A stretch of DNA of 24,000 nucleotides from Motilibacter aurantiacus (GTDB taxonomy: Bacteria > Actinomycetota > Actinomycetes > Motilibacterales > Motilibacteraceae), in NCBI RefSeq assembly GCF_011250645.1, contig NZ_JAANNO010000006.1, forward strand, positions 270,762 through 294,761, read 5' to 3'. Below the pieces are notes generated by a model. The model ran no database searches and had not been told where the DNA came from. It saw only the letters and a program-made list of their open reading frames with translations. Positions within the stretch are counted from its first letter, which is position 1. Each line of letters begins with the position of its first letter. A program made the position numbers and the translations under genes. Below are positions 2,208 through 24,000 of the stretch, piece by piece.

Positions 2208-2321
2208 GAGCCTCCCCTACGGGTGCCTACGGGCGCACGGCACACCGGTCCGTAAGGGAAGTATCGGCAATCCACCGCGCGGAGCGCACCGTACGCGCCG
2301 GTGCCGGGACGGTGGGAAGCA

Positions 2322-3677
2322 TCACGATCCGGACAACACCCCCGAGTCCGCACGGCGCACGGCGAGCCGGTTGACCAGCCAGAGCACGACGCCGGCGGCC
2401 AGCAGGACGCCCGCCCGGACGTACACGTCGGCGTCGCGGCCGGTCACCGGGGACGCGAGCACCAGGCTCGCGACCGCGCCGACCGCCGGTGCCCAGGTCG
2501 GGGCCCGGAAGTGCCGGTGCCCGACCGTCTCGCGGCGCAGCACGAGCACGCTGACGTTGACGGCGGCGAAGACGAGCAGCAGGAGCAGGACGGTGGTGTC
2601 CGCGAGCCCGGCCAGGTCGCCGGTCGCCACCAGCACGAGCGCCACCGCGGTCGTCGCCGAGATCGCGAGCCACGGCGTGTGCCGCGTGGAGTGCACGGTG
2701 GCGAGGGCCCGCGGGACGATTCCCTCGTTCGCCATCCCGTAGACCACGCGGGAGGCCATGAGCATGTTGAGCAGCGCGGTGTTGGTGACCGCGACCAGTG
2801 CGATCGCCGCGAACGCCTTGGCCGGCACGTCGATCCCGCCCGCACGCACGACCTCGAGCAGCGGCCCGGTCGAGCCGGCCAGCTCGTCGGTCGGCACGAG
2901 CAGGGTCGCCACCAACGCCACGGCGAGGTAGACGACGCCGGTGATCGCGAGGCCGAGGAAGAGCGCCCGGGGGAAGGTCGACTGCGGCTCCTCGACCTCC
3001 TCGGCCATGTTGACCGAGTCCTCGAAGCCGATGAGGGCGTAGAACGCGAGCGCGGCCCCGCCGAGCACGCCGAGCACGGCGCCCCCCTCGGCCGAGAAGT
3101 CGGTGGCCCGGGCGGTGTCGCCGTCCCCCTGCAGCAGCGCGGCCACGCCGACGACGATCACGAGGAGCAGCCCGCTCACCTCGATCAGCGTCAGCACGAG
3201 GTTGACCCGCACCGACTCCTTGGTGCCGAGCAGGTTGACCGCGGCGAGCAGGAGGACGAACCCGACCGCGACCAGCACGACGGGCAGGGTCACGAACTCG
3301 GCCAGGTAGTCCCCTCCGAACCCCCGGGCCGCCGCGCTCGCCGAGGTGATGCCGCTGGCCATCACCGTGAAGGCGACCATGAAGGTGACGAAGGGGCGGC
3401 CGAAGGCCCGGTTGACGTAGAGCGCTGCCCCGGCGGCCTTCGGGTACTTGCCCACCAGCTCCGCGTAGGCCGTCGCGGTGAGGAACGCGAGGACGAAGGC
3501 GACGAGGAACGGCAGCCAGATCGCGCCGCCGACCTCCCCCGCGACCTTCCCGGTGAGCGTGTAGATCCCCGCGCCGAGGATGTCGCCGACGATGAAGAGC
3601 AGCAGCATCCGCCGGCCCATGACTCGCTTGAGGCCCCCTCCTGGGGCGGCCTCGGACTGCTCGGCGATCGTGGCCAT
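2322..3677 (-). CDS. APC-superfamily amino acid permease
   Basis: Distal part of the 872-aa track ORF. ATG at 3675-3677 gives MATIAEQSEAAPGGGLKRVMGRRMLLLFIVGDILGAGIYTLTGKVAGEVGG... The protein is about 451 aa with about 12 hydrophobic segments. The GDILGAGIY and GFEDSVNMAEE motifs are typical of APC permeases. Confidence 0.85.
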   Translation of the reverse strand: MATIAEQSEAAPGGGLKRVMGRRMLLLFIVGDILGAGIYTLTGKVAGEVGGAIWLPFLVAFVLAFLTATAYAELVGKYPKAAGAALYVNRAFGRPFVTFMVAFTVMASGITSASAAARGFGGDYLAEFVTLPVVLVAVGFVLLLAAVNLLGTKESVRVNLVLTLIEVSGLLLVIVVGVAALLQGDGDTARATDFSAEGGAVLGVLGGAALAFYALIGFEDSVNMAEEVEEPQSTFPRALFLGLAITGVVYLAVALVATLLVPTDELAGSTGPLLEVVRAGGIDVPAKAFAAIALVAVTNTALLNMLMASRVVYGMANEGIVPRALATVHSTRHTPWLAISATTAVALVLVATGDLAGLADTTVLLLLLVFAAVNVSVLVLRRETVGHRHFRAPTWAPAVGAVASLVLASPVTGRDADVYVRAGVLLAAGVVLWLVNRLAVRRADSGVLSGS

Positions 3678-3721
3678 GCTCCGTAGTTCCCCGATCCTTG
3701 ATTCACCACTCGCAGATCGGG

Positions 3722-4948: not shown

Positions 4949-7066
4949 TCAGGCGTCGATGCGCTCGCGGTCCAGCCGCGCCGCGCCCTCGACGATGAAG
5001 TCGCGCCGAGGGGCCACCTCGTTGCCCATGAGCAGCTCGAAGACGCTGTCGGCGGCCTCGAGCTCGGAGATGTTCACCCGGCGCAGCGTCCGCTTGCGCG
5101 GGTCCATCGTGGTCTCGGCCAGCTGCGAGGCGTCCATCTCGCCCAGGCCCTTGTAGCGCTGGACCGGGTCACGCCAGCGGACGTTGCGCTTCTCCAGGTC
5201 GCGCAGCGTCTTCTTCAGCTCGGCGTCGGTGTAGGTGTAGAGGTACTTGGGCTGGTCCTTCTTCGGGTTCAGGATCTCGACCCGGTGCAACGGCGGCATC
5301 GCCGCGAAGACCCGGCCCTCCTCGACCAGCGGGCGCATCGTGCGGTAGAGCAGGGTGAGCAGCAGGCAGCGGATGTGCGCGCCGTCCACGTCGGCGTCGG
5401 CCATCAGGATGATCTTGCCGTAGCGCGCCGCGTCGATGTCGAACGAGCGGCCGGTGCCCGCGCCGATCACCTGGATGATCGAGGCGCACTCGGCGTTCTT
5501 GAGCATGTCCGAGGGCGAGGCCTTCTGGACGTTGAGGATCTTGCCGCGGATGGGCAGCAGCGCCTGGAACTCGGAGTTGCGGGCCAGCTTCGCCGTGCCC
5601 AGCGCCGAGTCGCCCTCGACGATGAAGAGCTCGCTGCGCGCGACGTCCTCGCTGCGGCAGTCGGCCAGCTTGGCCGGCAGCGAGCTGGTCTCCAGCGCGT
5701 TCTTGCGGCGCTGCAGCTCCTTGTGCTGGCGGGCGGCGATGCGCGTGCGCGCGGCGCTGGCGACCTTCTCCAGGATCGCCATCGCCATGGCCTTCTCCGT
5801 GCGCTTCGTGCTCGACAGCACCTCGGTCAGGTGCTTGTCGACCACGTGAGCCACGATGCGGGAGGCGGCGGAGGTGCCGAGCACCTCCTTGGTCTGGCCC
5901 TCGAACTGGGGCTCGGGCACCTTGACGGTGACGACCGCCGTCAGCCCCTCGAGCACGTCCTCCTTGGTGACGTCCGGCTCGGCGGTGCGCAGCACGCGGG
6001 ACGCGCGCAGCCGGGCGTTGAGCGACTTGGTCAGCGCGCGCTCGAAGCCGGCCACGTGAGTGCCGCCCTTGGGGGTGGCGACGATGTTGACGAACGAGCG
6101 GACGGTCGTGTCGTAGCCGGCCCCCCAGCGCAGCGCGACGTCGACCGTCATCTCGCGCGCGACCTCGGTCGGCGTCATGTGCCCCTGGTCGTCGAGGACC
6201 GGAACGGTCTCCTTGAAGTGGCCGACCCCCTGCAGCCGGAGGACGTCGCTGACCGCCGTGTCGGGGGCCAGGAACTCGCAGAACTCGGTGATGCCGCCGA
6301 CGTAGTGGAACTCCTCCTGCACGGGCGCGGCCGGGTCGCGCTCGTCGTGCAGCACGATCCGCAGCCCGGGCACCAGGAAGGCCGTCTGGCGGGCACGAGC
6401 GCGCAGCTGCTCGAGGTCGAGCGCCGCCTCCTTGAGGAAGACCTGCCGGTCGGCCCACCAGCGCACCCGCGTGCCGGTGACGCCGCGCTTGGCCCGGCCG
6501 GCGATCTGCAGCCCGGACTGCGGGGTGAACGGCGCGTCGGGGCCGTCGCCCGCGTAGACGCCCGGCTCGCCCCGCCGGAAGCTCATGAGGTGGACGCGGC
6601 CGGAGCGGTCGACCTCGACGTCCAGGCGGCTGGACAGCGCGTTGACGACCGAGGCGCCCACGCCGTGCAGGCCGCCGGACGCGGCGTAGGACCCGCCTCC
6701 GAACTTCCCGCCCGCGTGCAGCTTGGTGAGCACCAGCTCGACACCGGTCAGGCCGCTGCGCGGCTCGACGTCGACCGGGATGCCGCGCCCGTCGTCCCTG
6801 ACCTCGACCGAGCCGTCCGCGCCGAGCACCACGTCGATGCGCGTGCAGTAGCCGGCGAGCGCCTCGTCCACCGCGTTGTCGATGATCTCCCAGACGCAGT
6901 GCATGAGGCCGCGGCCGTCGGTGGAGCCGATGTACATGCCGGGCCGCTTGCGGACGGCCTCCAGCCCCTCCAGCACGGACAGGTGGCGCGCGGTGTAGCC
7001 GCCGTCACCGGCCCCCCGAGCGCCCTTCTTCGCACCCGGTACAGGCTCGGTCGGCTCGGCACTCAC
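4949..7066 (-). CDS. parE: Type IIA DNA topoisomerase B subunit (GyrB/ParE family; topoisomerase IV subunit B-like by context)
   Basis: Diagnostic GyrB/ParE motifs are present: LEGLEAVRKRPGMYIGST, HCVWEIIDNAVDEA, DDGRGIPV, GGLHGVGASVVNALS, the Toprim motif LFIVEGDSALGTAK, and IILMADADVDGAHI. The preferred start is GTG 7064-7066, preceded by AAGGAG 8 nt upstream. The track start at 7114 adds 16 aa. The ParE assignment rests only on location beside hrdB rather than beside dnaA-recF. Confidence 0.85.
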   Translation of the reverse strand: MSAEPTEPVPGAKKGARGAGDGGYTARHLSVLEGLEAVRKRPGMYIGSTDGRGLMHCVWEIIDNAVDEALAGYCTRIDVVLGADGSVEVRDDGRGIPVDVEPRSGLTGVELVLTKLHAGGKFGGGSYAASGGLHGVGASVVNALSSRLDVEVDRSGRVHLMSFRRGEPGVYAGDGPDAPFTPQSGLQIAGRAKRGVTGTRVRWWADRQVFLKEAALDLEQLRARARQTAFLVPGLRIVLHDERDPAAPVQEEFHYVGGITEFCEFLAPDTAVSDVLRLQGVGHFKETVPVLDDQGHMTPTEVAREMTVDVALRWGAGYDTTVRSFVNIVATPKGGTHVAGFERALTKSLNARLRASRVLRTAEPDVTKEDVLEGLTAVVTVKVPEPQFEGQTKEVLGTSAASRIVAHVVDKHLTEVLSSTKRTEKAMAMAILEKVASAARTRIAARQHKELQRRKNALETSSLPAKLADCRSEDVARSELFIVEGDSALGTAKLARNSEFQALLPIRGKILNVQKASPSDMLKNAECASIIQVIGAGTGRSFDIDAARYGKIILMADADVDGAHIRCLLLTLLYRTMRPLVEEGRVFAAMPPLHRVEILNPKKDQPKYLYTYTDAELKKTLRDLEKRNVRWRDPVQRYKGLGEMDASQLAETTMDPRKRTLRRVNISELEAADSVFELLMGNEVAPRRDFIVEGAARLDRERIDA

Positions 7067-7348
7067 GTCGCAAGGCTCCTTGTCCGATACACAGGGCGTC
7101 GCGGCGGGAAGCACTAGGCGAAGGGCACCCGGGACGCCTGGAACAGCAACGCCAGGCTACTCGGGGGCCCCGACAGGGTGAGGCCGACGCGCCTCGGCCC
7201 GCCTGAGGCGTCCCGCGGGTTACGTTCGCGTTCCGATCGGGATCGCGTACGGCGAACACGGCGTCAACGAGGTCTGGGACGAACGTAGCGTGGTAGGACG
7301 TTGGTCCAGACGTAGAGCGCAAGCTGAACGAGAACGAGAAGAGGGACC

Positions 7349-7579
7349 GTGACCACTGCCCTTGCCACCCACGCTGCCCTCACCGCGGCCGACCGTTGTG
7401 ACCGCTGCGGCGCCCAGGCGTACGTCCGGGTGACGCTCGAGTCCGGCGGCGAGCTGCTCTTCTGTGCGCACCACGGCCGGGAGCACGCGACCAAGCTCCG
7501 GGAGATCGCCTCCGACATCCAGGACGAGACCGGTCGCCTCGAGCGCACGACGCCCACCGCGCCCGCGGACGAGCGCTGA
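7349..7579 (+). CDS. Small conserved actinobacterial Cys/His protein (CxxC...CxHH, putative zinc ribbon; resembles the DUF7455 type, name uncertain)
   Basis: GTG start after a purine-rich gagaagaggga stretch. The 76-aa product is MTTALATHAALTAADRCDRCGAQAYVRVTLESGGELLFCAHHGREHATKL... GC3 is high. It is divergent from parE and followed by strong hairpins. Confidence 0.7.
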   Translation: MTTALATHAALTAADRCDRCGAQAYVRVTLESGGELLFCAHHGREHATKLREIASDIQDETGRLERTTPTAPADER

Positions 7580-7626
7580 GGCGCCCCTGACCGATCGCCC
7601 CGGGTGTGCGGGGCGGTCCCCGACCT

Positions 7627-7661
7627 CGACGAGCCCCGGTGCGCTGCACCGGGGCTCGTCG
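7627..7661. terminator. GC-rich hairpin between convergent genes (putative bidirectional intrinsic terminator)
   Basis: cgacgagccccggtgc-gct-gcaccggggctcgtcg forms a perfect 16-bp stem with a 3-nt loop. It lies between the stop of the small + gene (7579) and the stop of phosphoketolase (7707). A second 7-bp hairpin, cgccccg-ggtgtg-cggggcg, lies at 7596-7615. There is no U-tract, which is common in actinobacteria. Confidence 0.65.
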
Positions 7662-7706
7662 CGTGCCGGCGGGCTCGGGGCCGCCCGTGCCCGCTCGCGG
7701 CCGGGG

Positions 7707-10130
7707 TCAGCCTCGCTCGGCCCAGTCGCCCAGCGACCAGTCGCGGACCTCGGGCATGTCCTCGAGGTGCTCGACGACGTACGCCGCGTGCTCGGCGAGC
7801 TTCTGCTCGCACCAGGCCTTGAGCTCGGTGGCCCCGCGTGGTGTCCGCTTCGCGTTGTTGATCGCGTCCATCACCAGGTGGTACCGGGACGTCCGGTTGC
7901 GCACGACCATGTCGAAGGGCGTGGTCGTGGTCCCCTCCTCGATGAAGCCGCGCACCCGGAAGCGGTCGGCGTCCGGGCGCCCGTGCACCAGCTGGTGGAT
8001 CGCGCCGGGGAAGCCGTGGAACGCGAAGACCACGTCCGTGTCGTCGGTGAACAGCTCGGTGAAGTACGTGGGGCTCATGCCGTGGGAGTGGTCGCGCGGG
8101 CGCAGCAACGTCATCAGGTCGACCACGTTCACCACGCGCGTCCGCAGCTGCGGCAGCCGCTCCTTGAGGATCTGCGCCGCCGCGACCGTCTCCATCGTCA
8201 CCACGTCGCCGGCGCAGGCGAGGACGATGTCCGGGTCGTCGGCGCCGTCCTCGTTGCCCGCCCAGTCCCAGGTGCCGGCGCCCCGTCGGCAGTGCTCGAT
8301 CGCCTCGTCCATCGTGAGCCACTGCAGCTGCGGCTGCTTGTCGATGACGAGAAGGTTGATGTAGGACCGCGAGCGCAGGCAGTGGTCCGCGACCGACAGC
8401 AGGGTGTTCGCGTCCGGGGGCAGGTAGACGCGCGAGACGTCCTGGCGCTGGGTCAGCGCGACCTGGATCAGGCCGGGGCCCTGGTGGGAGAAGCCGTTGT
8501 GGTCGTTGCGCCAGGCGGTCGAGGTGAGCAGGATGTTCAGGCTCGGGACCTTCGCTCGCCAGGGCAGGTGCGTCGCCTCCTCCAGCCACTTGCCGTGCTG
8601 GACCGTCTGCGAGGCGCTGACCATGGCGAAGGCCTCGTACGTCGCGAACATCCCGTGCCGGCCGGTGAGCGTGTAGCCCTCGAGCCAGCCGTGGCAGTTG
8701 TGCTCGGAGAGCACCTCCATGACGCGCCCGTCCCGGCCGATCGCGAGGTCGTCCGAGGTGACCTGCTCCATGAACGCCCGGTCCGACGCCTCGAAGACCG
8801 CGCCGAGCCGGTTGCTGTTCGTCTCGTCCGGGCAGAACAGGCGGAACCGGTCGTCGTTGCGCACGTAGACGTCGCGCAGCAGCGCGCCGAGCTGCCGCGT
8901 CGACTCGGCCTTCACCTGCGCCGGGCGCGGCACCTCCAGCGCGTAGTCGCGGAAGTCGGGCAGGTCCAGGTCCTTGGTCAGCAGCCCGCCGTTGGCGTGC
9001 GGGGAGGCGCTCATGCGCAGGTCGCCCGTCGGGTTGGCCCGGCGCACGAGCTCGGTGGGGGCGCCGTCGGCGTCGAAGAGCTCCTCCGGCCGGTAGGACC
9101 GCAGCCACGTCTCCAGGATCGCCAGGTGCTCGTCGTTGCCCTTGACCCCGGACAGCGGGACCTGGTGGGAGCGCCAGGTGCCGGTGACCCTGACCCCGTC
9201 GATCTCCTCCGGGCCGGTCCAGCCCTTCGGCGAGCGCAGCACGATCATCGGCCAGCGCGGGCGCGTGCCGTCCCAGTCGCCACCGCGCGCCGCCTCCTGG
9301 ATCGCCCGGATCTTCCCGTACGCCTCCGCGAGCACCGCCGCGAAGCGCAGGTGCATGCCGGGCAGGTCGTCGCCCTCGACCTCGAGCACGTCGTAGCCGT
9401 GCCCACGCAGCAGCGAGCGGACCTCCTCGGGGTCCTTGCGCCCGAGGACGGTCGGGCCGGCGATCTTCGCGCCGTTGAGGTGCAGGATGGGCAGCACCGC
9501 GCCGTCACGGGCGGGGTTGAGGAAGGAGACGCCCTTCCAGGACCCCTCCAGCGGCCCGGTCTCGGCCTCCCCGTCGCCCACGACGGCGATCGCCAGCAGG
9601 CTCGGGTTGTCCATCACCGCGCCGAACGCGTGCACCAGGACGTACCCGAGCTCGCCGCCCTCGTGGATCGAGCCCGGCGTCGTCACCGAGACGTGGCTCG
9701 GGATGCCGCCCGGGCTGGAGAACTGGCGGAACAGGCGCAGCAGGCCCGCCTCGTCCTGCGTCACGCGCGGGTAGGTCTCGGTGTAGCTGCCCTCGAGGTA
9801 CGACGCCGCCACGAGCGCCGGCCCGCCGTGGCCGGGCCCGGCGAGGTAGATCGCCTCCTGGCCGGTGTGCCGGATCACGCGCGACACGTGCGCGTAGATG
9901 AACGAGAGGCCCGGGCTGGTGCCCCAGTGCCCCAGCAGCCGGGGCTTGATGTGCTCGGAGGAGAGCTGCTCGCGCAGCAGCGGGTTGCCCTGCAGGTAGA
10001 TCTGGCCGATGGTCAGGTAGTTGTTCGCCCGCCACCAGGCGTCGAGAGCCTCGACCTCGTCGTCGCCGGGATGGGCGAGCGCGTGGAGTACGCCCTCGGT
10101 CGTGCTGCCGGTCAGGGTGTCGAGAGCCAC
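7707..10130 (-). CDS. xfp: Phosphoketolase (xylulose-5-phosphate/fructose-6-phosphate phosphoketolase)
   Basis: The 807-aa product carries hallmark phosphoketolase sequence: WWRANNYLTIGQIYLQGNPLL, HIKPRLLGHWGTSPGL, GPGHGGPA, SHVSVTTPGSIHEGGELGY, and EHNCHGWLEGYTLTGRHG. GTG start at 10128-10130 follows the SD GGAAGGA. Confidence 0.95.
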   Translation of the reverse strand: MALDTLTGSTTEGVLHALAHPGDDEVEALDAWWRANNYLTIGQIYLQGNPLLREQLSSEHIKPRLLGHWGTSPGLSFIYAHVSRVIRHTGQEAIYLAGPGHGGPALVAASYLEGSYTETYPRVTQDEAGLLRLFRQFSSPGGIPSHVSVTTPGSIHEGGELGYVLVHAFGAVMDNPSLLAIAVVGDGEAETGPLEGSWKGVSFLNPARDGAVLPILHLNGAKIAGPTVLGRKDPEEVRSLLRGHGYDVLEVEGDDLPGMHLRFAAVLAEAYGKIRAIQEAARGGDWDGTRPRWPMIVLRSPKGWTGPEEIDGVRVTGTWRSHQVPLSGVKGNDEHLAILETWLRSYRPEELFDADGAPTELVRRANPTGDLRMSASPHANGGLLTKDLDLPDFRDYALEVPRPAQVKAESTRQLGALLRDVYVRNDDRFRLFCPDETNSNRLGAVFEASDRAFMEQVTSDDLAIGRDGRVMEVLSEHNCHGWLEGYTLTGRHGMFATYEAFAMVSASQTVQHGKWLEEATHLPWRAKVPSLNILLTSTAWRNDHNGFSHQGPGLIQVALTQRQDVSRVYLPPDANTLLSVADHCLRSRSYINLLVIDKQPQLQWLTMDEAIEHCRRGAGTWDWAGNEDGADDPDIVLACAGDVVTMETVAAAQILKERLPQLRTRVVNVVDLMTLLRPRDHSHGMSPTYFTELFTDDTDVVFAFHGFPGAIHQLVHGRPDADRFRVRGFIEEGTTTTPFDMVVRNRTSRYHLVMDAINNAKRTPRGATELKAWCEQKLAEHAAYVVEHLEDMPEVRDWSLGDWAERG

Positions 10131-11481: not shown

Positions 11482-13020
11482 TCAGTCCAGGTAGTCGCGC
11501 AGCACCTGCGACCGCGACGGGTGGCGCAGCTTGCTCATCGTCTTGGACTCGATCTGGCGGATCCGCTCGCGGGTGACCCCGTAGACCTTGCCGATCTCGT
11601 CCAGCGTCTTGGGCTGGCCGTCGGTGAGCCCGAACCGCATGGACACCACGCCCGCCTCGCGCTCGGACAGCGTGTCGAGCACCGAGTGCAGCTGCTCCTG
11701 GAGCAGCGTGAACGACACGGCCTCGGCCGGGACGACCGCCTCGGAGTCCTCGATGAGGTCGCCGAACTCGGAGTCCCCGTCCTCACCGAGCGGGGTGTGC
11801 AGCGAGATGGGCTCGCGGCCGTACTTCTGGACCTCGACGACCTTCTCCGGGGTCATGTCGAGCTCCTTGGCCAGCTCCTCCGGGGTGGGCTCGCGGCCCA
11901 GGTCCTGGAGCATCTGGCGCTGCACGCGGGCGAGCTTGTTGATGACCTCGACCATGTGGACCGGGATGCGGATCGTGCGCGCCTGGTCGGCCATGGCGCG
12001 CGTGATCGCCTGGCGGATCCACCACGTCGCGTAGGTCGAGAACTTGTAGCCCTTGGTGTAGTCGAACTTCTCGACCGCCCGGATGAGGCCCAGGTTGCCC
12101 TCCTGGATCAGGTCCAGGAAGAGCATGCCGCGGCCGGTGTAGCGCTTGGCCAGCGAGACGACCAGGCGCAGGTTGGCCTCGAGCAGGTGGTTCTTGGCCC
12201 GGCGCCCGTCCTCGGCGATCCAGTCGAGCTCTCGCTTGAGCTTCGGGGCGAGCTTCTCCCCCGAGCCGAGTTTCTCCTCGGCGAAGAGGCCGGCCTCGAT
12301 CCGCTTGGCGAGCTCGACCTCCTGCTCGGCGTTGAGGAGGGCGACCTTGCCGATCTGCTTGAGGTAGTCCTTGACCGGGTCCGCGGTCGCGCCCGCCGTG
12401 GCGACCTGCTGGGCCGGCTCGTCGGCGTCGTCGTCGGAGAGGACGAACTCCTCGGTCTCCCCGCCCTCCTCGGCCGCGGCAGGGGCCGCGGCCGGCTCGG
12501 CACCGTCGGCCGCCTCCGCGGCGCCGTCGACCGGCTCCGCGGCGTCGGCGACGACGTCCACGCCATCAACACTGTCGACACCGTCCACGAGGTCCCCGGG
12601 GCCGGCGGGCTCGACGAGGTCCTCCAGCACGACGTCATCGGGCTCGGCCGAGTCCTCGGCCGGGTCCGCGAGGCCGGTGGCGGCCTTGGCCGCCGGAGCG
12701 GCGGCCTTCTTGGCGGACTTGCGCGGCGCAGCCTTCTTCGCGGCGGTGTCGACCGAGGAGGTCGCGGTCGCCCGGCGCGCGGTGGTTGCCGCCACGGCTC
12801 GCCGGGACGCCGGGGCCGGGGCGTCCAGCGCCACGGTGACGCCCTCCTCGGCGAGCGCGCGCAGCACGGCCTTGACGCGCGAGACGGCTATGCGGCCGTC
12901 GCACGCCTCACGCACCTGAGCTGCGGTGACCGATCCGGTGGACCTTCCGGTCGTGAGGAGCTCCTGCACCTCGGGGACGGCGAACTCGGGCGGAAGCGGG
13001 CGGGGCGTGACCGACGACAC
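11482..13020 (-). CDS. sigA: Principal (group 1) RNA polymerase sigma factor, HrdB/SigA/RpoD
   Basis: Regions 1.2-4.2 are complete: [108 protein letters not shown], and [41 protein letters not shown]. An acidic/Ala-Lys-rich N-terminal extension is typical of actinobacterial HrdB. The preferred start is GTG 13018-13020 ([10 protein letters not shown]...) with GAGAGG 6 nt upstream. The 120 extra codons of the track ORF are Arg/Gly junk. The 254-bp upstream region contains TGGCAGAAT (complement of 13197-13205), an extended -10-like element; this is weak evidence. Confidence 0.95.
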
Positions 13021-13274
13021 GTACAACCTCTCGCTGGACGGGCGACCGTGCAGGACGGGCAGGACCGGGATCCGGGCACATCTGTCGCGACGTTCCCTTC
13101 CGGCGATGGCGGGACTTGCTACCGGACGACACCGCTCGCGCGCGCAACGCCGTCCGGGCCGCCGCTCTGGGAACATCTCAGGGCAGCAACCGCACCATTC
13201 TGCCACGGCGGCAGCGCCGCTCGGCGGTCTCGAGCCCGGGGCCCGCGGGCCGTCGCCGCTCCTGGACGTCCAGC

Positions 13275-15044
13275 TCAGACGCGCAGTGCCAGCAGGGTCA
13301 CGTCGTCCCAACGCTGCCCCGCGCTCGCCCCGGCCGCGACCGCCCGGTCGAGCAGCGCCTCCAGCTCCAGCCCGCCGCACCCACCGAGGCTCTGCGCCAG
13401 CGCGTCGAGCCCGGCGCCGATCCCGGCCTCCCGGGTCTCCACCAGCCCGTCACTGAACGCGAGGATGGTGTCGCCCGCGGACAGCTCGAGCACGCGCTCG
13501 GAGCGCGGCTCCGGCACGCCGAGCGGCGTGGCCAGCTCGACCACGGGGAGCAGCCGGGCCGGGCCCGACGCCGGTACGAGCACGACCGGCGGGTGCCCGG
13601 CGGCGGTCGCGACCAGGGTCCGGGTCGCGGGATCGAGCACCCCGTAGACCAGGGTGACGATCTGCTCGAGGCCCTCGGTCGCGGAGAAGACCCGGTCCAG
13701 CCCGGACAGGACCGCCGACGGGGACGGGTCGGTGAAGGCCAGGGCCCGCAACGCGGCGCGGACCCGCCCCATCCCCGCCGCCGCGTTCACGCCCTTGCCC
13801 ATGACGTCGCCGAGCGTGACGGCGAGCCGGCCGTCGGGCAGCGCGAAGGCGTCGTACCAGTCGCCGCCGACCGCCGTCGCCTCCCAGCCGCGGGTACCCG
13901 TGCGGGACGCCGGCAGGTAGCGGCCGGCCAGCTGGGCGCCTGCGACCTGCGGCAGCCGGTCCGGCAGCAGGCTGGCCTGCAGGGCCTCCGCCGTGCGGTG
14001 CTCGTTCTCGTACAGCAGCGCCCGCTCGACCGCGACGGCGCACTGGGTCCCGACGGCCTCGAGGAAGACCCGCTCCTCGGACGCCAACGTGCGCGGCTCG
14101 GCGAACGCGACGCGCAAGGCCCCGAGCGTCCCGCGCGCGGTCAGGAGCGGCACCGCCGCCCAGGAGCGCTCCTTCGAGGCCCCGACCTGCCGGGAGATCC
14201 ACTCCGGGTCCGTGCCCAGGGTCACCAGCTCCTCGGGAGAGGCGGCGTAGACCGGTCGCCCGGTGGTGATGGCCACCGCGGTGGGCACGCGGCTGTCCAG
14301 CGGGACGCGGACGCCGTCCGGCCGCGCGTCCGGGCCCGGGACCACTCCGGAGTCCGGGCGGAACACGACCTCGTCCCCGTCGAGCAGGGAGAGCCCCGCC
14401 ACCAGGGCCCCCAGCGACCGCGCCTCGTCGGTGACGACCGCCATGACCTCGGCGAGCGTGAGGGCGGTCGCCAGCCGGGTCGTCACGGTGAGCAGCCGCT
14501 CGGCCCGTTGGTACGCCGCGAGCAGCGCGTCCTCGGTCGTGCGGCGCTGCGTGACGTCCGCGACGAACACGGCGACGCCGCGGATGCGGCCGTCCTCCCC
14601 GCGTGCCGGGAACCACTGCGACTGCCAGTGGGTGACCGAGCCGTCCGGGCCGGTGCCGACGAAGTCGTCGTCGTGGACGGGCGCGCCCGTCTCCATGACC
14701 CGGCGCAGCATGTCCTCGACGGCCACGCCGAGGTCGCCGAGGATCTCGGCCGGGCGGTGGCCCAGGTGCTCCTCGACGGGGAGCCCGTTGACGGCGGCGA
14801 GCACCCGGTTGATCCCGCGGTAGCGCAGCTCGGCGTCGTAGAACGCGAAGCCGAGCGGCGCCTCCTGGACGAGCATCTCCAGCAGCGCCGCGTCGGTCGG
14901 GGGCAGCGTCCCGCTCGGAGTGCCGGCCGCCTCGTCCCCCGGCGCCACGCCGCCTCCCCTCGCTCGCGCGCCCCATCCGGGGCGATCGGCCCGCGAGCCA
15001 CGTCGGCCCCCGCTGCCGCTCACGCTAACGTGATCGGCCGTCAC
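13275..15044 (-). CDS. PAS-GAF-PP2C (SpoIIE/RsbU-type) serine phosphatase
   Basis: The N-terminal region looks like PAS ([34 protein letters not shown]...). The central region looks like GAF ([29 protein letters not shown]...). The C-terminus is PP2C/SpoIIE: [12 protein letters not shown]...[34 protein letters not shown]...TLVYGVLDP...AGHPPVVL...FSDGLVE...[10 protein letters not shown]. The start is ambiguous: GTG 15044 has no SD, while the in-frame GTG 14946-14948 follows GGGGAGG. Confidence 0.85.
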
Positions 15045-15086: not shown

Positions 15087-15497
15087 TCAGCGGTCGTCCT
15101 CGTCGGCCTTGACCGCCAGGACGGGGCACGGGGCGTCGAGAAGGACGCGCTGGGCGTTGCTGCCGAGGATCAGCTTGCCCACCGGGGAGCGGCGGCGCAG
15201 CCCGATGACGATCACGTCGGCGTGCACCTCCTCGGCGATGGCGATGAGGTCCTCGGACGGCTCCTGGCCGCGCACCAGCTGGCGTACCTCGTGCTCGATG
15301 CCGGCCGCCTCGAGCGCGTCGCGCACGCTGAGCAGTTCCTTCTCGTACTGGTTGTCCGCGTCGGCCCCGGTGTCCCGGACGGCGCGCAGCGAGCTGACGA
15401 CGACGAGCCGCTGCTTGCGCAGCCGGGCCTCCTCGGCGGCACGGCGCAGCGCGGCGCGCCCCTCGGGCTTGGGCACATAGCCCACGACGATCGTCAT
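15087..15497 (-). CDS. Universal stress protein (UspA family)
   Basis: The 136-aa product MTIVVGYVPKPEGRAALRRAAEEA...HADVIVIGLRRRSPVGKLILGSNAQRVLLDAPCPVLAVK shows the typical Usp fold signature, including the G-x2-G-x9-G(S/T) ATP-binding tail. SD AGGAGAGG lies before the ATG. Confidence 0.85.
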   Translation of the reverse strand: MTIVVGYVPKPEGRAALRRAAEEARLRKQRLVVVSSLRAVRDTGADADNQYEKELLSVRDALEAAGIEHEVRQLVRGQEPSEDLIAIAEEVHADVIVIGLRRRSPVGKLILGSNAQRVLLDAPCPVLAVKADEDDR

Positions 15498-20404: not shown

Positions 20405-21478
20405 ATGCCGGGCCCTTCGTGCGTTGACGTCTCTGCTATGACAATCGAGACGAGGCTGCAGACGACGCAGCAGACGCACCCGGGGGCTCCCACCCCCTCC
20501 GACGACTCTAACCGTGCAGCCGACGCGGCGACGCCGGTGTCCGAGCAGGACCTCGACCTCGCCGCCCCGACCGCTGACCTGGTCCGCCTCTACCTCGATG
20601 ACATCGGGCGGACCCCGCTCCTCACCGCGGCCGAGGAGGTAGAGCTCTCCCAGCGCATCGAGGCCGGTGTCTACGCCGAGCACCTGCTCAAGGAGGCGCC
20701 CAGCGACCTCGACGCCGAGCGGCGGGCCCAGCTCGAGGCGCTCGTCCGGGACGGCCTGCGGGCCAAGGACCAGATGCTGCGGGCCAACCTGCGGCTCGTC
20801 GTGTCGGTGGCCAAGAAGCACAGCCACCGCGGGCTGCCCTTCCTCGACGTCGTCCAGGAGGGCAACCTCGGCCTGGTCCGGGCGGTGGAGAAGTTCGACT
20901 ACCGCAAGGGCTACAAGTTCTCGACGTACGCCACCTGGTGGATCCGGCAGGCGATCGGGCGCGGGCTGGCCGAGCAGGCGCGCACCATCCGGCTGCCCGT
21001 CCACGTGCACGAGCAGATCGGCAAGCTGACCCGCGCCCTGCGCGAGCTGTCGAGCAAGCTCGAGCGCGAGCCCACGGACGAGGAGATCGCCGAAGCGCTC
21101 GGCTGGGACGTCGCGGACGTCGTGTCGCTGCGCCGTGTGGGGCGCGAGGCGATCAGCCTCGACACCCCGGTCGGCGACGACATGGACACCAGCGTCGGCG
21201 AGCTCGTCGTCGACACCGACGCCGTCACCGCTGTGGAGGCGGTCGAGCACCGCGCGATGCTGCGCGAGCTGCACCGAGCGATCGCGACGCTGCCGGAGCG
21301 GGAGGCGGCCATCGTGCGGCTCCGTTACGGGCTGCTCGACGGCCGGGCACGCACGTTGGACGAGATCGGCCGCGAGCTGGGCCTGACCCGCGAGCGGATC
21401 CGCCAGCTGGAGAAGGAGGCGCTGGCCAAGCTGCGCCACCCGTCGGCGACCCGGGACCTGCTCGACTGGGCGAGCTGA
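20405..21478 (+). CDS. Group 2 RpoD-family sigma factor (SigB/HrdD-like, non-essential paralog of the principal sigma)
   Basis: [108 protein letters not shown], and [30 protein letters not shown] are present. It lacks the long acidic N-terminal region of the principal sigma. An alternative start is ATG 20438 (MTIETR...). Confidence 0.9.
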
Positions 21479-21516: not shown

Positions 21517-22005
21517 ATGGAGCTGTGGGAGCTGGCCCTCGTCGCGCTGGCGATGCTGGTGGGCCTGGTCGGAGTGCTCGTCCCGGTCCTGCCCGGCCTG
21601 GCCGTCATCTGGGCGGCCGGGCTGGTGTGGGCCTGGCTGGAGGACGGCGTCGCGCCCTGGCTCGTGCTGGCCGCCGTCACCGCGGTGCTGGGCGCCGGCA
21701 CGACGGCGAAGTACGTCCTCCCGGCCCGGGCGCTGCGCGGCTCAGGAGCGCCCACGTCGACGGTCCTTGCCGGGGCGGCGCTCGGCGTCGTGGGCTTCTT
21801 CGTCCTGCCGGTCGTGGGCCTGCCCCTCGGCTTCGTCGGCGGGGTCTACCTCGCCGAGCAGGCGCGGCTGCGCGCGCCGCGCGCGGCCTGGGCCAGCACG
21901 GTGGTGACGCTCAAGGGCATCGGCATCGGTGTGCTCCTCGAGCTGGCCGCCGGCCTGGTCGCCGTCGGGCTGTGGACGGTCTCGGCGCTGATCATCGCCG
22001 CCTGA
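21517..22005 (+). CDS. DUF456-type small integral membrane protein
   Basis: MELWELALVALAMLVGLVGVLVPVLPGLAVIWAAGLVWAW...GAGTTAKYVLPAR...GFFVLPVVGLPLGFVGGVYLAE... has four hydrophobic segments and the LPGxP/AKY signature of DUF456. It lies in the frame of track ORF 20938..22005, but only the last 162 codons are credible. Confidence 0.7.
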   Translation: MELWELALVALAMLVGLVGVLVPVLPGLAVIWAAGLVWAWLEDGVAPWLVLAAVTAVLGAGTTAKYVLPARALRGSGAPTSTVLAGAALGVVGFFVLPVVGLPLGFVGGVYLAEQARLRAPRAAWASTVVTLKGIGIGVLLELAAGLVAVGLWTVSALIIAA

Positions 22006-23563
22006 CGCCCGGGACGGCACCAGGCCCGGCCGCGAGGCGCCCAGGCACCGGCAGCGGCACCAGCCGAAGGCCCCCTGCGTCGACCAGCAGCTCGCAGACC
22101 TGGTGACCCGCGGGGCCGCCGCGTACGCCGAGCACGGCCACCGTTCGCGCGAGCCGGTCGCCGAGGTCGAGGTGGCGCAGCAGCAGCACGCCGTCGGCCG
22201 CGGCCAGCAGCTCGGGATGGAGGTCCTGCGGGTCTCCGATCAGCGGCTGGGTGGACGTGGTGAGCAGCGTGGTGCCGCCGGTCGCCCGCAGCACCGCGTC
22301 CAAGCCGCGTACCAGCTCCGCGAAGACGACCTCCGACGCGGCCCGCTGCACGGCTCCGAGCCCGTCCACGACGACGCGGGCCGGCGCGAGCTCCTCGACT
22401 GCGAGCTGCACCGCCACGAGCATCTCCTCGGGCGCCTCGGGGCGCACGGGCAGGAACCGGAGGTGGCCCTTTCGCTCCGCCGCCTCGAGCCGGTAGCCCG
22501 CCCCGGCCGTCGCATGGAGCACCTGCTCCCGGGTGCGGTCGCACGCGACGAAGAGCACGGGCCCGTTCTCGCCGGCAGTGGGCTCGACCGCGCAGGCGAA
22601 CGACGCGGCGAGCAGCGTCTTGCCCGACGCGGCCGGTCCCGCGACCAGCAGCACCGACCCGCGGTACGCCCCGCCACCGCACAGCTCGTCGAGCTGCGAG
22701 CTGCCGAGCGGGACCCGGTCGTTGCCGGGCCGCGGGAGCGGTCGCCCGCCGCGCCCGGGCAGGACGACGACGCCTCGCCGCGGGTGGACGGAGAAGGGGT
22801 GCTCGCCGCCGCGGTGGCCCGCCCCGCGCATCTTCAGCACCTCGATGGTCCTGCGCCGGCGCTCCCCCTGCAGCCGGTTGCGCAGGACCACGACGTTGTC
22901 GGCGACGAACTGTCCGATGCCGGTCAGGGTGAGCCGTGGGTCGGCCTCGGCCGTCTCCGCCGTGAGCACCACGGTCAGCCCGAGGCGGCGCAGCTCGGCC
23001 ACGAGCCGGCGCAGCTGGCCGCGGACGACCTCGGTCCCCGCGCTGCGCAGCAGCACGGCGTCCAGGGAGTCGATGGCCAGCCGGACCGCGCCCGTGGCGT
23101 CGACCGCCCGGCCGATCTGCGCGGCCAGCGTCTCCAGGCTGTAGTCGGTGAAGGCCTCGGCGGACTCGCCCACGACGACGGGTGAGGCGTCGACGAAGCT
23201 CCACAGCTCCTGCCGCTCCCAGTCCGCGATCGGCCAGCCGAGCGTGGACAGGTTGGCCCGCAGCTCGTCCGCCGGCTCCTCGAGGGAGACGAAGACGGCC
23301 GGCTGCCCGCGGCGTACCCCCTCGGCGAGGAACTGGGCGGCGAACACCGTCTTCGCGGCTCCGGCCTCACCGGAGACCAGGGTGGCCCGTCCCCGCGGCA
23401 GGCCTCCCCCGCTGATGACGTCGAAGCCCGGGATCCCGGTCTCGACCCGCGCGAGCTCGGGGTCGGCGTGCTCGGCCGGACCGCGCTGCTCGTGCGGCGA
23501 GGGGTGAGCAGTGGGTGGTGCGCCATGCGTCCCCTGGGCGCCCGCAGGCCCAGGGGCCGTCAC
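21992..23563 (-). CDS. KaiC-like double RecA-domain ATPase (atypical, non-clock type)
   Basis: Domain 1, VETGIPGFDVISGGGLPRGRATLVSGEAGAAKTVFAAQFLAEG...AVFVSLEEPADEL...LAIDSLDAV...IEVLKMRGAGHRGGEHPFSV, aligns almost residue-for-residue with KaiC CI. Domain 2 is RVPLGSSQLDELCGGGAYRGSVLLVAGPAASGKTLLAASF...VLFVACDRTREQVL...VVVDGLGAV...VAVLGVRGG. The preferred start is GTG 23561-23563, overlapping the upstream stop (GTGA). The track start is 23611. Confidence 0.85.
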   Translation of the reverse strand: MTAPGPAGAQGTHGAPPTAHPSPHEQRGPAEHADPELARVETGIPGFDVISGGGLPRGRATLVSGEAGAAKTVFAAQFLAEGVRRGQPAVFVSLEEPADELRANLSTLGWPIADWERQELWSFVDASPVVVGESAEAFTDYSLETLAAQIGRAVDATGAVRLAIDSLDAVLLRSAGTEVVRGQLRRLVAELRRLGLTVVLTAETAEADPRLTLTGIGQFVADNVVVLRNRLQGERRRRTIEVLKMRGAGHRGGEHPFSVHPRRGVVVLPGRGGRPLPRPGNDRVPLGSSQLDELCGGGAYRGSVLLVAGPAASGKTLLAASFACAVEPTAGENGPVLFVACDRTREQVLHATAGAGYRLEAAERKGHLRFLPVRPEAPEEMLVAVQLAVEELAPARVVVDGLGAVQRAASEVVFAELVRGLDAVLRATGGTTLLTTSTQPLIGDPQDLHPELLAAADGVLLLRHLDLGDRLARTVAVLGVRGGPAGHQVCELLVDAGGLRLVPLPVPGRLAAGPGAVPGVRRR

Positions 23564-24000
23564 CGGGTGGCGCCCCGCGGGCCCGCCGCGGCCAGGACGA
23601 ACCAGACACACTTGCCGTCCGGCTCGGTCGTCACCCCCCAGTCGTCACTGAGCGCGGAGAGCAGGGCCAGCCCGCGCCCCGACGTGCGGGAATCGCTCTC
23701 CGCCTGCGGCTCCGGCTGCTGGGGGTTGTGGTCGGCCACGGTGACGAGGACCGCGGAGTCCAGCCGCGTCACGCCCACGGTGAACCGGGTACGCGCGTGC
23801 AGCACGGCATTGGTCACGACCTCGCTGACCAGGATGTCGAGGGCGTCTGCGGCCTCGGGGCCGAGCGGCGGTACCTGCGACCGCACCCACAGCCGAGCCT
23901 CCCGTGCCGCCCGCGGCTCCGGGCGCAGGTCCACGGAAGCGTGGGGAGCCCCCGGGGGGACCGCAAAGGCGTGTCCCTCCAGCAACGACTGCCTCCCCAT
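23560..24000 (-). CDS. RsbW/SpoIIAB-like HATPase_c-type serine kinase / anti-sigma-factor-like protein
   Basis: The 146-aa product contains ...AREARLWVRSQV...ADALDILVSEVVTNAVLHARTRFTVGVTRLDSAVLVTVADHNP...TSGRGLALLSALSDDWGVTTEPDGKCVWFVL. That covers the N-box (E..TNA..HA), G1 and G2 (GRGL) of the HATPase_c_2 family. Its ATG sits exactly at the window end (23998-24000), so a longer N-terminus cannot be excluded. Confidence 0.75.
   Translation of the reverse strand: MGRQSLLEGHAFAVPPGAPHASVDLRPEPRAAREARLWVRSQVPPLGPEAADALDILVSEVVTNAVLHARTRFTVGVTRLDSAVLVTVADHNPQQPEPQAESDSRTSGRGLALLSALSDDWGVTTEPDGKCVWFVLAAAGPRGATR

Follow-up and report, generated by a model that had tools for sequence, protein, structure and literature searches.

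An RsbW-like gene overlaps kaiC in Motilibacter aurantiacus and in a clade of Actinomycetota, and may encode a dedicated KaiC partner

What does a KaiC homologue do when the gene directly upstream of it encodes, in place of KaiB, a small protein of the RsbW/SpoIIAB fold? KaiC is the best understood protein timer; beyond cyanobacteria and a few proteobacteria, we know of almost nothing on the roles of its homologues. The question is raised by a 24,000-nucleotide stretch of the Motilibacter aurantiacus genome (74% G+C; contig NZ_JAANNO010000006.1, positions 270,762 to 294,761 of the forward strand), referred to here as the window. We use the name HAT for the small RsbW/SpoIIAB-fold protein encoded directly upstream of kaiC. 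We lean, by a modest margin over doubt, towards the answer that the HAT gene and kaiC form a translationally coupled two-gene operon, a cassette of one clade of Actinomycetota, in which HAT would be an RsbW-like partner dedicated to KaiC.

Both predicted proteins are identical to NCBI proteins of the species. HAT is the 146-aa 'ATP-binding protein' of M. aurantiacus (P0121, 100% identity and coverage), and it matches Pfam HATPase_c more weakly than HATPase_c_2. Its gene starts at the last three bases of the window; NCBI annotates the identical 146 residues, and the gene is therefore complete, so that the 5' side of the operon is not cut by the window end as the first-pass annotation had supposed. 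The KaiC homologue contains PF06745 twice, in two tandem RecA-like domains that each have a Walker A motif, as the KaiC family requires. By phmmer it matches solved KaiC structures over its full length (3.6e-96 to 1e-79), and it is identical to the NCBI 523-aa 'ATPase domain-containing protein' of the species (P0001), started at the same overlapping GTG. The TGA stop of HAT lies at 23562-23560, and the GTG at 23563-23561 is in frame with the kaiC open reading frame (ORF). There is no other ATG, GTG or TTG between this GTG and the start of KaiC homology, and the only other possible start, also a GTG, is 52 nt deeper within the HAT gene. Profile matches, NCBI gene models and direct reading of the sequence all agree with the earlier description of a 146-aa HATPase_c-type gene that overlaps a KaiC-like ORF by four nucleotides at GTGA.

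The gene order upstream of HAT was read from the orthologous locus of Motilibacter deserti, where a divergent S15 peptidase gene lies ~145 bp upstream of HAT; the operon therefore has two genes, HAT and kaiC. An inspection of the upstream side for STAS, PP2C or sigma genes, proposed earlier, found none upstream of HAT at the M. deserti locus. Neither there nor in the window is a cognate STAS antagonist or a SigB/F/G-type sigma factor encoded alongside HAT.

The pairing extends well beyond Motilibacter. A scan of one genome per species gave 80 KaiC loci. Of these, 29 belong to an actinobacterial clade, made up mostly of Frankiales, Mycobacteriales and Actinomycetota metagenome-assembled genomes (MAGs) together with M. 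deserti; the remaining 51 include one actinobacterial MAG (L074). An orthologue of HAT lies directly upstream of kaiC, on the same strand, in 29 of the 29 clade loci and in 0 of the 51 others, whereas kaiB lies upstream in 51 of 51 loci outside the clade and in one of the 29 within it (L009). The pair also occurs in the window and in four further metagenome contigs, so the adjacency holds in at least 34 distinct loci, and it is kept, mostly with overlapping genes, down to ~45% KaiC identity. Conservation of the two neighbours had been named as a check of the idea that the KaiC-like ATPase is the partner of HAT; comparative genomics supports that idea. The four-nucleotide ATGA/GTGA junction recurs in 25 of 31 independent HAT-carrying loci, with an 8-nt overlap in one more (independent gene callers give overlaps of 4, 8, 4, 4 and 4 nt), and for this reason the overlap exceeds chance.

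The genomic setting of the pair changes from lineage to lineage. One subclade carries it between adnAB and moeZ and another next to sigB, and the remaining loci have it at other places. Because the settings differ, the cassette appears to have been inherited or moved as a unit. Neighbour clustering over 30 loci found no third conserved gene, only housekeeping synteny (adnA/adnB, moeZ, DUF3152 and a methyltransferase) in one subclade. Accessory genes vary by lineage (B12-binding, GAF-SpoIIE, GGDEF and a second HATPase_c_2), and these differing neighbours point to a core of HAT and KaiC with lineage-specific inputs or outputs.

A point that the first-pass annotation missed is that the HAT gene appears to stand where an ancestral kaiBC operon had kaiB. 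The exceptional locus L009, from a Mycobacteriales MAG (1320-3678), carries genes for HATPase_c_2 (1320-1826), KaiB (1823-2116) and KaiC (2116-3678) in series, and all the junctions overlap. KaiB, SpoIIAB and RsbW sequences served as phmmer seeds and alignment guides, and the KaiB call at L009 was then confirmed by Pfam (KaiB, 5.8e-14). The KaiC of L009 is the HAT-linked sequence closest to the kaiB-linked cluster in a neighbour-joining tree, which is confounded by phylogeny and by the long Motilibacter branch and counts as weak evidence only. The arrangement and the tree position fit an addition of HAT to kaiBC followed by loss of kaiB, and L009 appears to represent an intermediate stage on the way from kaiBC to the HAT-kaiC cassette. 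In the history we propose, the ancestor was a kaiBC operon, before whose kaiB a HATPase_c_2 gene from STAS-type partner switching would have been placed, the state that survives in L009; kaiB would then have been lost from HAT-kaiB-kaiC. Eight positions distinguish HAT-linked KaiCs from kaiB-linked ones, and seven of these fall in the CI domain, including two in the helix just after the B-loop; this contrast is weak evidence too, confounded in the same two ways as the tree.

What kind of protein is HAT? Its AlphaFold2 model (predicted local distance difference test, pLDDT, 88.6) finds its best Foldseek matches in SpoIIAB, RsbW and Mycobacterium tuberculosis UsfX (E 7e-9 to 6e-6, TM 0.6-0.7) and is also close to the RsbW domain of Rv1364c. 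HAT is thus predicted to be a true RsbW/SpoIIAB-fold protein. Invariant in the HAT family are the N-box residues E60 and N64, D90, the G2-box G108-R-G110 and R36; the last aligns with SpoIIAB R20, which we take to be a partner-contact residue. Against the SpoIIAB equivalog model HAT scores 19 bits (cut-off 135). Its best NCBIfam match is the C-terminal part (185-298) of the RsbA model NF041045 (1.2e-9; 37.8 bits against a cut-off of 210). A whole-database search with the HAT profile returned more than 58,000 cluster representatives, so that the KaiC-linked HATs are a single branch within a very large family of actinobacterial RsbW-like proteins. The nearest homologues that are not KaiC-linked (40-46% identity) adjoin STAS and GAF-ANTAR genes; because these more distant homologues stand beside STAS genes, the family context suggests that HAT was recruited from classical partner switching. 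Fusions of HAT homologues to PAS/GAF, SpoIIE and HK-REC domains are seen.

Most KaiC-linked HATs (L002-L059 alignment) start with M/V-S-C-Q-R and have a Cys at position 3. The Motilibacter proteins start with MGRQS or MGRHS, without Cys, and may have lost a redox-sensitive or modified residue.

The state of KaiC itself bears on what HAT could read. Motif calls were made from a HMMER alignment to solved KaiC structures and from an alignment of 120 homologues, and the HMMER alignment bears out every earlier call (the CI P-loop GEAGAAKT, the CI Glu pair and KMRG, the CII P-loop, D-R and L/A). The CI domain keeps the catalytic Glu pair (E95-E96, corresponding to E77-E78 of clock KaiC) and the Arg-finger motif KMRG, and on these motifs it may be catalytically competent. 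The CII domain has a canonical Walker A motif, and nucleotide binding by it is probably kept; in alignment A1, D400 (the Walker B Asp) and R481 (the Arg finger) do not vary. Its Arg-finger motif reads GVRG, as against KMRG in clock-type KaiC, and the catalytic Glu pair is replaced, as are the phospho-sites, with L448 in place of T426. M. deserti has D-Q at the CII Glu-pair position, and the other 118 homologues of the 120-sequence alignment keep E-E. Relatives carry S-T or S-G at the positions of S431-T432; outside Motilibacter, homologues keep CII GxTGTGKT together with E-E and S-T or S-G. The homologue reaches neither of the NCBIfam equivalog cut-offs for clock KaiC (370 bits with a cut-off of 408 and 273.5 bits with a cut-off of 546; NF006799, TIGR02655). 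There is no KaiB-like ORF in the window or the M. deserti locus, and no KaiA gene is present. The earlier judgement that this is not a clock-type KaiC therefore stands, on the equivalog scores, the lost CII Glu pair and phospho-acceptors, and the lack of KaiA and KaiB genes.

The same annotation also saw complementary degeneration of the two halves, and only one part of this survives. CII is degenerate, in Motilibacter alone; the AKT P-loop of CI is widespread elsewhere. GQAGSAKT is the most frequent CI P-loop, present in 81 of the 120 closest homologues. The form GxAGSAKT, with Gly replaced by Ala, is conserved across the whole actinobacterial clade and also occurs in ~40 of the 51 kaiB-linked KaiCs, from Chloroflexota, Magnetococcales, Acidobacteriota, Bacteroidales and others. 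This prevalence rules out decay: because AKT is the majority state in HAT-linked and kaiB-linked KaiCs alike, it is best read as an old, probably ancestral variant under selection.

The CII losses, on the other hand, are confined to the genus Motilibacter, that is, to M. aurantiacus and M. deserti, whose KaiC proteins are 79% identical. Motilibacter CI is 55-62% identical to that of relatives, near what is usual for CI in the clade (the mean is 69% among the other HAT-linked KaiCs), and Motilibacter CII only ~30-37%, where the relatives share 58-75% identity with each other in CII. When the two Motilibacter species are compared, HAT is 95% and CI 90% identical, and the ratio of nonsynonymous to synonymous substitution rates (dN/dS) is 0.04 for HAT, 0.10 for CI and 0.29 for CII at a dS of ~0.67. 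The N- and C-terminal tails of KaiC are unconserved. A dN/dS of 0.29 means that CII is relaxed and still under purifying selection; it behaves like a retained pseudo-kinase domain, not a pseudogene.

We infer from these observations that HAT physically binds KaiC. HAT would be made in fixed proportion to KaiC and bind the KaiC hexamer. This reading of HAT as a dedicated KaiC-binding protein draws on stoichiometric co-production, deep conservation and occupation of the kaiB slot, and also on the fact that a classical anti-sigma gene overlaps the gene of the protein that it binds, which here is kaiC. CI would be the likeliest docking or sensing site, because KaiB and SasA dock on CI in cyanobacteria. 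The nucleotide or phosphorylation state of KaiC may decide whether HAT is held or released, and the signal would pass on through HAT, acting as an output or regulator in a partner-switching manner. In Motilibacter, the kept P-loop, Walker B Asp and Arg finger, together with the loss of the Glu pair and of T426, S431 and T432, suggest that CII probably binds ATP for ring assembly and would not be able to autophosphorylate. On its motifs, the Motilibacter version is predicted to be incapable of acting as a phosphorylation clock or hourglass. It would work through the CI ATPase, the ATP:ADP state or phosphorylation by HAT at other sites. Since CII lacks autophosphorylation and HAT is nonetheless so strongly conserved, the coupling would be independent of S431/T432, and CI becomes the likelier docking or sensing site.

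Several observations weigh against a dedicated partnership of HAT with KaiC. Two genes may share an operon because they are co-regulated, without their products binding each other. No HAT-KaiC fusion was found among 95 close homologues, nor among ten longer proteins taken from the best 150 representatives of the profile search. HAT and KaiB coexist in L009, which means that HAT is not a strict substitute for KaiB. In M. deserti (L001:2822-2896), the GTGA at the HAT stop is kept but is out of frame with kaiC, and a 67-nt spacer with a 24-codon mini-ORF separates the two genes. The mini-ORF runs to a second GTGA (2893-2896), which is in the kaiC frame, and the spacer could be a coupled-restart chain, a junction duplication or an assembly indel; the NCBI start of kaiC lies downstream of the second GTGA and gives a protein of 465 aa. 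Finally, the G1-box glycines are absent across the HAT family and only D90 remains, which makes kinase activity of HAT uncertain. How far do these points favour other explanations? One is that HAT serves a distant set of STAS and sigma proteins, in the manner of ordinary actinobacterial RsbW paralogues, and merely shares a promoter with kaiC. The missing fusions count in its favour; STAS genes are often encoded elsewhere in Actinobacteria, and many of the profile-search representatives stand in PAS/GAF/SpoIIE partner-switching contexts. We consider this rather improbable, as the four-nucleotide overlap is kept across KaiCs only ~45% identical while the cassette changes location, HAT takes the place of kaiB, the two being mutually exclusive, and the nearest STAS-linked homologues form a separate, more distant group. 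We find it scarcely credible that the Motilibacter kaiC has lost its function and is now a relic decaying into a pseudogene. The CII catalytic residues and phospho-sites are indeed lost, CII has diverged to ~30% identity with relatives and the tails are unconserved; the ORF is nevertheless intact in two species at the dS given above, dN/dS is well below 1 in both CI and CII, CII has not lost its P-loop, Walker B Asp or Arg finger, and the HAT partner is 95% identical between the species.

Another possibility is that HAT is an active Ser/Thr kinase with KaiC as its substrate, in place of a STAS protein such as RsbV or SpoIIAA; in Motilibacter, trans-phosphorylation by HAT would then replace the lost CII autokinase. 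HAT does keep the N-box Glu and Asn, the adenine-contacting Asp and the G2 box, and its fold matches the kinase-active SpoIIAB and RsbW. In the lineage in which CII autophosphorylation is not possible, HAT is the part under the strongest constraint, and GAF-SpoIIE (PP2C) phosphatase genes adjoin the pair in L084 and L088, with one such gene within the window. We think it unlikely all the same, considering that the G1-box glycines are missing family-wide, relatives with a canonical CII autokinase need no external kinase, KaiC has a RecA rather than a STAS fold, and no conserved extra Ser/Thr acceptor was identified. HAT might also act on the nearby SigB-like sigma factor, binding it as an anti-sigma factor, with KaiC as the anti-anti-sigma factor that releases it. 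HAT has the fold of an anti-sigma factor, with the Arg counterpart of SpoIIAB R20 invariant, and the sigma gene converges on the operon in both Motilibacter species and in their two closest relatives, L085 and L088 (64% identity to Motilibacter in HAT, ~48% in KaiC and 67% in sigma). It is absent from ~30 other loci: a search with the sigma sequence found none within 10 kb in 27 other HAT-linked genome loci, and the gene calls of L081, L083, L084 and L089 place none beside the pair. The first-pass annotation had placed the sigma gene back-to-back with the pair, which does not hold; its orientation is convergent, and another gene (DUF456 or GGDEF) lies between. Known RsbW-type targets are sigmas of the SigB/F/G type, and this one has region 1.2 and is principal-like, of group 1/2 (414 bits against the NCBIfam SigB subfamily cut-off of 464). 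Synteny shared by close relatives suffices to explain the adjacency. With only three related lineages sharing it, and the wrong sigma class, the sigma neighbour is mostly rejected as a functional partner, and an anti-sigma role for HAT at this gene seems very improbable. A KaiC-dedicated HAT remains the best reading.

The comparison with known systems brings out how the HAT-kaiC pair differs from each of them. It would work most like a kaiBC system with its small partner exchanged, and like an RsbW partner-switching pair in which another protein has taken the place of the STAS or sigma partner. The non-cyanobacterial kaiBC operons of the Rhodobacter, Rhodopseudomonas and Legionella type serve as KaiA-less hourglass or stress systems. 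Like the HAT-kaiC pair, they have a double-domain KaiC with a coupled small partner gene immediately upstream; many kaiB-linked KaiCs share the GxAGSAKT CI P-loop, and the relative L009 retains kaiB. The partner, however, is a HATPase_c_2 protein of the Bergerat fold and not a thioredoxin-like KaiB, and Motilibacter, lacking the CII autokinase and all phospho-sites, would have no phosphorylation cycle possible. HAT resembles the anti-sigma factors of the RsbW-RsbV-SigB, SpoIIAB-SpoIIAA-SigF and M. tuberculosis UsfX-RsfA/B-SigF systems in fold and size, in its N-box and G2 box and in the Arg aligned with SpoIIAB R20. In those systems the overlapping downstream gene (sigB, sigF) encodes the protein bound by the anti-sigma factor, a position taken here by kaiC, which HAT would bind. 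Unlike them, the HAT-kaiC operon lacks both a STAS gene and a SigB/F/G-type sigma gene, and HAT is without the G1-box glycines and scores far short of the SpoIIAB cut-off. With SasA and CikA, the histidine-kinase outputs of cyanobacterial KaiC, HAT shares being a GHKL-type ATP-binding protein genetically dedicated to KaiC, and by analogy it is plausibly a reader of KaiC state. It differs from both in that it has no KaiB-like docking domain, HisKA domain or cognate response regulator, and in belonging to the RsbW branch, not the histidine-kinase branch.

Two further systems combine related modules. KaiC-like ATPases of archaea have reportedly been proposed as signalling hubs by Makarova, Galperin and Koonin in 2017. 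As in the Motilibacter case, they are KaiC-family ATPases, some of them with inactivated domains, that have varied signalling partners rather than a clock; the Motilibacter case is bacterial, has two KaiC domains and is kaiBC-derived, and an RsbW-like protein is not among the archaeal partners that we found described. RsbA-type anti-sigma factors, as in Streptomyces, join an N-terminal MEDS domain to HATPase_c_2, and so likewise combine KaiC-like and RsbW-like modules, which makes them a rather loose precedent. In contrast to them, HAT and KaiC are two separate proteins, KaiC is a full double-domain ATPase, and HAT is a single domain well below the RsbA cut-off. The Motilibacter KaiC weakly matches MEDS (2.9e-5), a domain classed as inactivated KaiC, 'iKaiC' (PMC5847659), and gives no direct match to the RsbA model. 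The HAT-kaiC locus thus fails membership of clock KaiC, of kaiBC and, at the equivalog level, of RsbW/SpoIIAB and RsbA, and it appears to be not a clock but a previously undescribed KaiC signalling module. In the searchable open-access literature we found no description of a link in Actinobacteria between KaiC and RsbW, HATPase_c_2 or an anti-sigma factor, in line with the first-pass annotation, which knew of no characterised RsbW-KaiC module. A broad 2017 census of Kai homologues makes no mention of Actinobacteria (PMC5520375).

The features of the locus are collected in Table 1. The DUF456 gene, which adjoins the pair only in Motilibacter, is convergent on kaiC, and the 3' ends of the two genes overlap by 14 nt (21992-22005), which leaves no space for a terminator between them. 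In the relatives L085 (7142-8599) and L088 (4577-6127), the next gene after kaiC, in the same orientation and at gaps of 109 and 16 nt, encodes a GAF-PAS-GGDEF diguanylate cyclase and is itself followed by the convergent SigB-like sigma gene; Motilibacter has the opposite-strand DUF456 gene instead. This hints at a cyclic di-GMP output in these two lineages.

Table 1. Coordinates of the HAT-kaiC operon, its motifs and the adjoining genes in the window
Feature	Position	Strand	Remarks
HAT, complete 146-aa RsbW/SpoIIAB-fold gene (HATPase_c_2)	23560-24000	minus	First operon gene; Pfam PF13581, 3e-15
kaiC homologue, 523 aa, double-domain	21992-23563	minus	Second and last operon gene; Pfam KaiC twice, 3.1e-87
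GTGA junction, HAT stop overlapping kaiC GTG start	23560-23563	minus	Putative translational coupling; direct sequence reading
CI domain, residues 37-270	22754-23455	minus	Well conserved; keeps E95-E96 and KMRG
CI Walker A, GEAGAAKT	23348-23371	minus	Ala replaces Gly before Lys; GT(S/P)GTGKT in solved KaiC structures
CII domain, residues 285-500	22064-22711	minus	Degenerate pseudo-kinase half
CII Walker A, GPAASGKT	22616-22639	minus	Canonical; structure and homologue alignments
D342-R343, replacing CII catalytic pair E318-E319	22535-22540	minus	Structure and homologue alignments
L453-A454, replacing phospho-sites S431-T432	22202-22207	minus	Structure and homologue alignments
DUF456 membrane protein gene	21517-22005	plus	Pfam PF04306, 1.3e-29; context, not part of the module
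SigB-like group-1/2 sigma gene	20405-21478	plus	Sigma70 regions 1.2, 2, 3 and 4; convergent on the operon

Upstream neighbours of the pair also differ among the relatives. A GAF-SpoIIE phosphatase gene lies directly upstream of HAT in L084, and a second HATPase_c_2 gene in L081. In two Mycobacteriales MAGs, L036 (8246-9403, plus strand) and L059 (~6400-8427, plus strand), a protein with B12-binding_2 and B12-binding domains is encoded directly upstream of HAT with ATGA/GTGA overlaps, giving a coupled three-gene operon of B12-binding protein, HAT and KaiC. Two other MAGs, one of Blastocatellia and one of Bacteroidales, encode homologous B12-binding proteins at ~1.7 kb upstream of their kaiBC genes (L030:7188-8279 and L064:6278-7360). 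Such proteins may feed a light or cobalamin signal into Kai-type systems.

Farther off in the window, ~8.5 kb from the pair, lies a PAS-GAF-SpoIIE (PP2C) phosphatase gene of the partner-switching type (13275-15044, minus strand), which adjoins genes for a principal sigma factor and a universal stress protein (11482-13380 and 15087-15497, both minus strand). A GyrB/ParE-like type II topoisomerase B-subunit gene (4949-7114, minus strand) and a phosphoketolase (XFP) gene (7707-10130, minus strand) form a housekeeping context. As to a defence system, the PADLOC models gave a single match, to 'mad8' (33.7 bits over ~70 residues), which was rejected as a trivial P-loop match.

What might the HAT-kaiC cassette mean for the KaiC family? 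It links two kinds of switch that are usually studied apart, the ATPase and phosphorylation switches of KaiC and anti-sigma partner switching. It also comes with a comparison series, in which relatives have a canonical CII, one locus keeps kaiB, and the cultured, CII-dead Motilibacter has a strongly constrained partner; the question of which half of KaiC talks to the partner is therefore directly testable. Tentatively, and with less conviction than we attach to HAT as a KaiC-dedicated partner, we can imagine that in one clade of Actinomycetota the KaiBC timer was remodelled into a partner-switching device of a new kind, in which the RsbW-like protein reads the state of the KaiC hexamer. HAT would then relay that state to a transcriptional or second-messenger output, for which the related loci offer a sigma factor and the downstream GGDEF diguanylate cyclase as candidates, with upstream B12-binding or GAF-PP2C proteins as possible inputs. 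If this is true, Motilibacter would be a natural 'CII-dead' version of the device, in which the coupling between KaiC and its partner runs on the CI ATPase alone.

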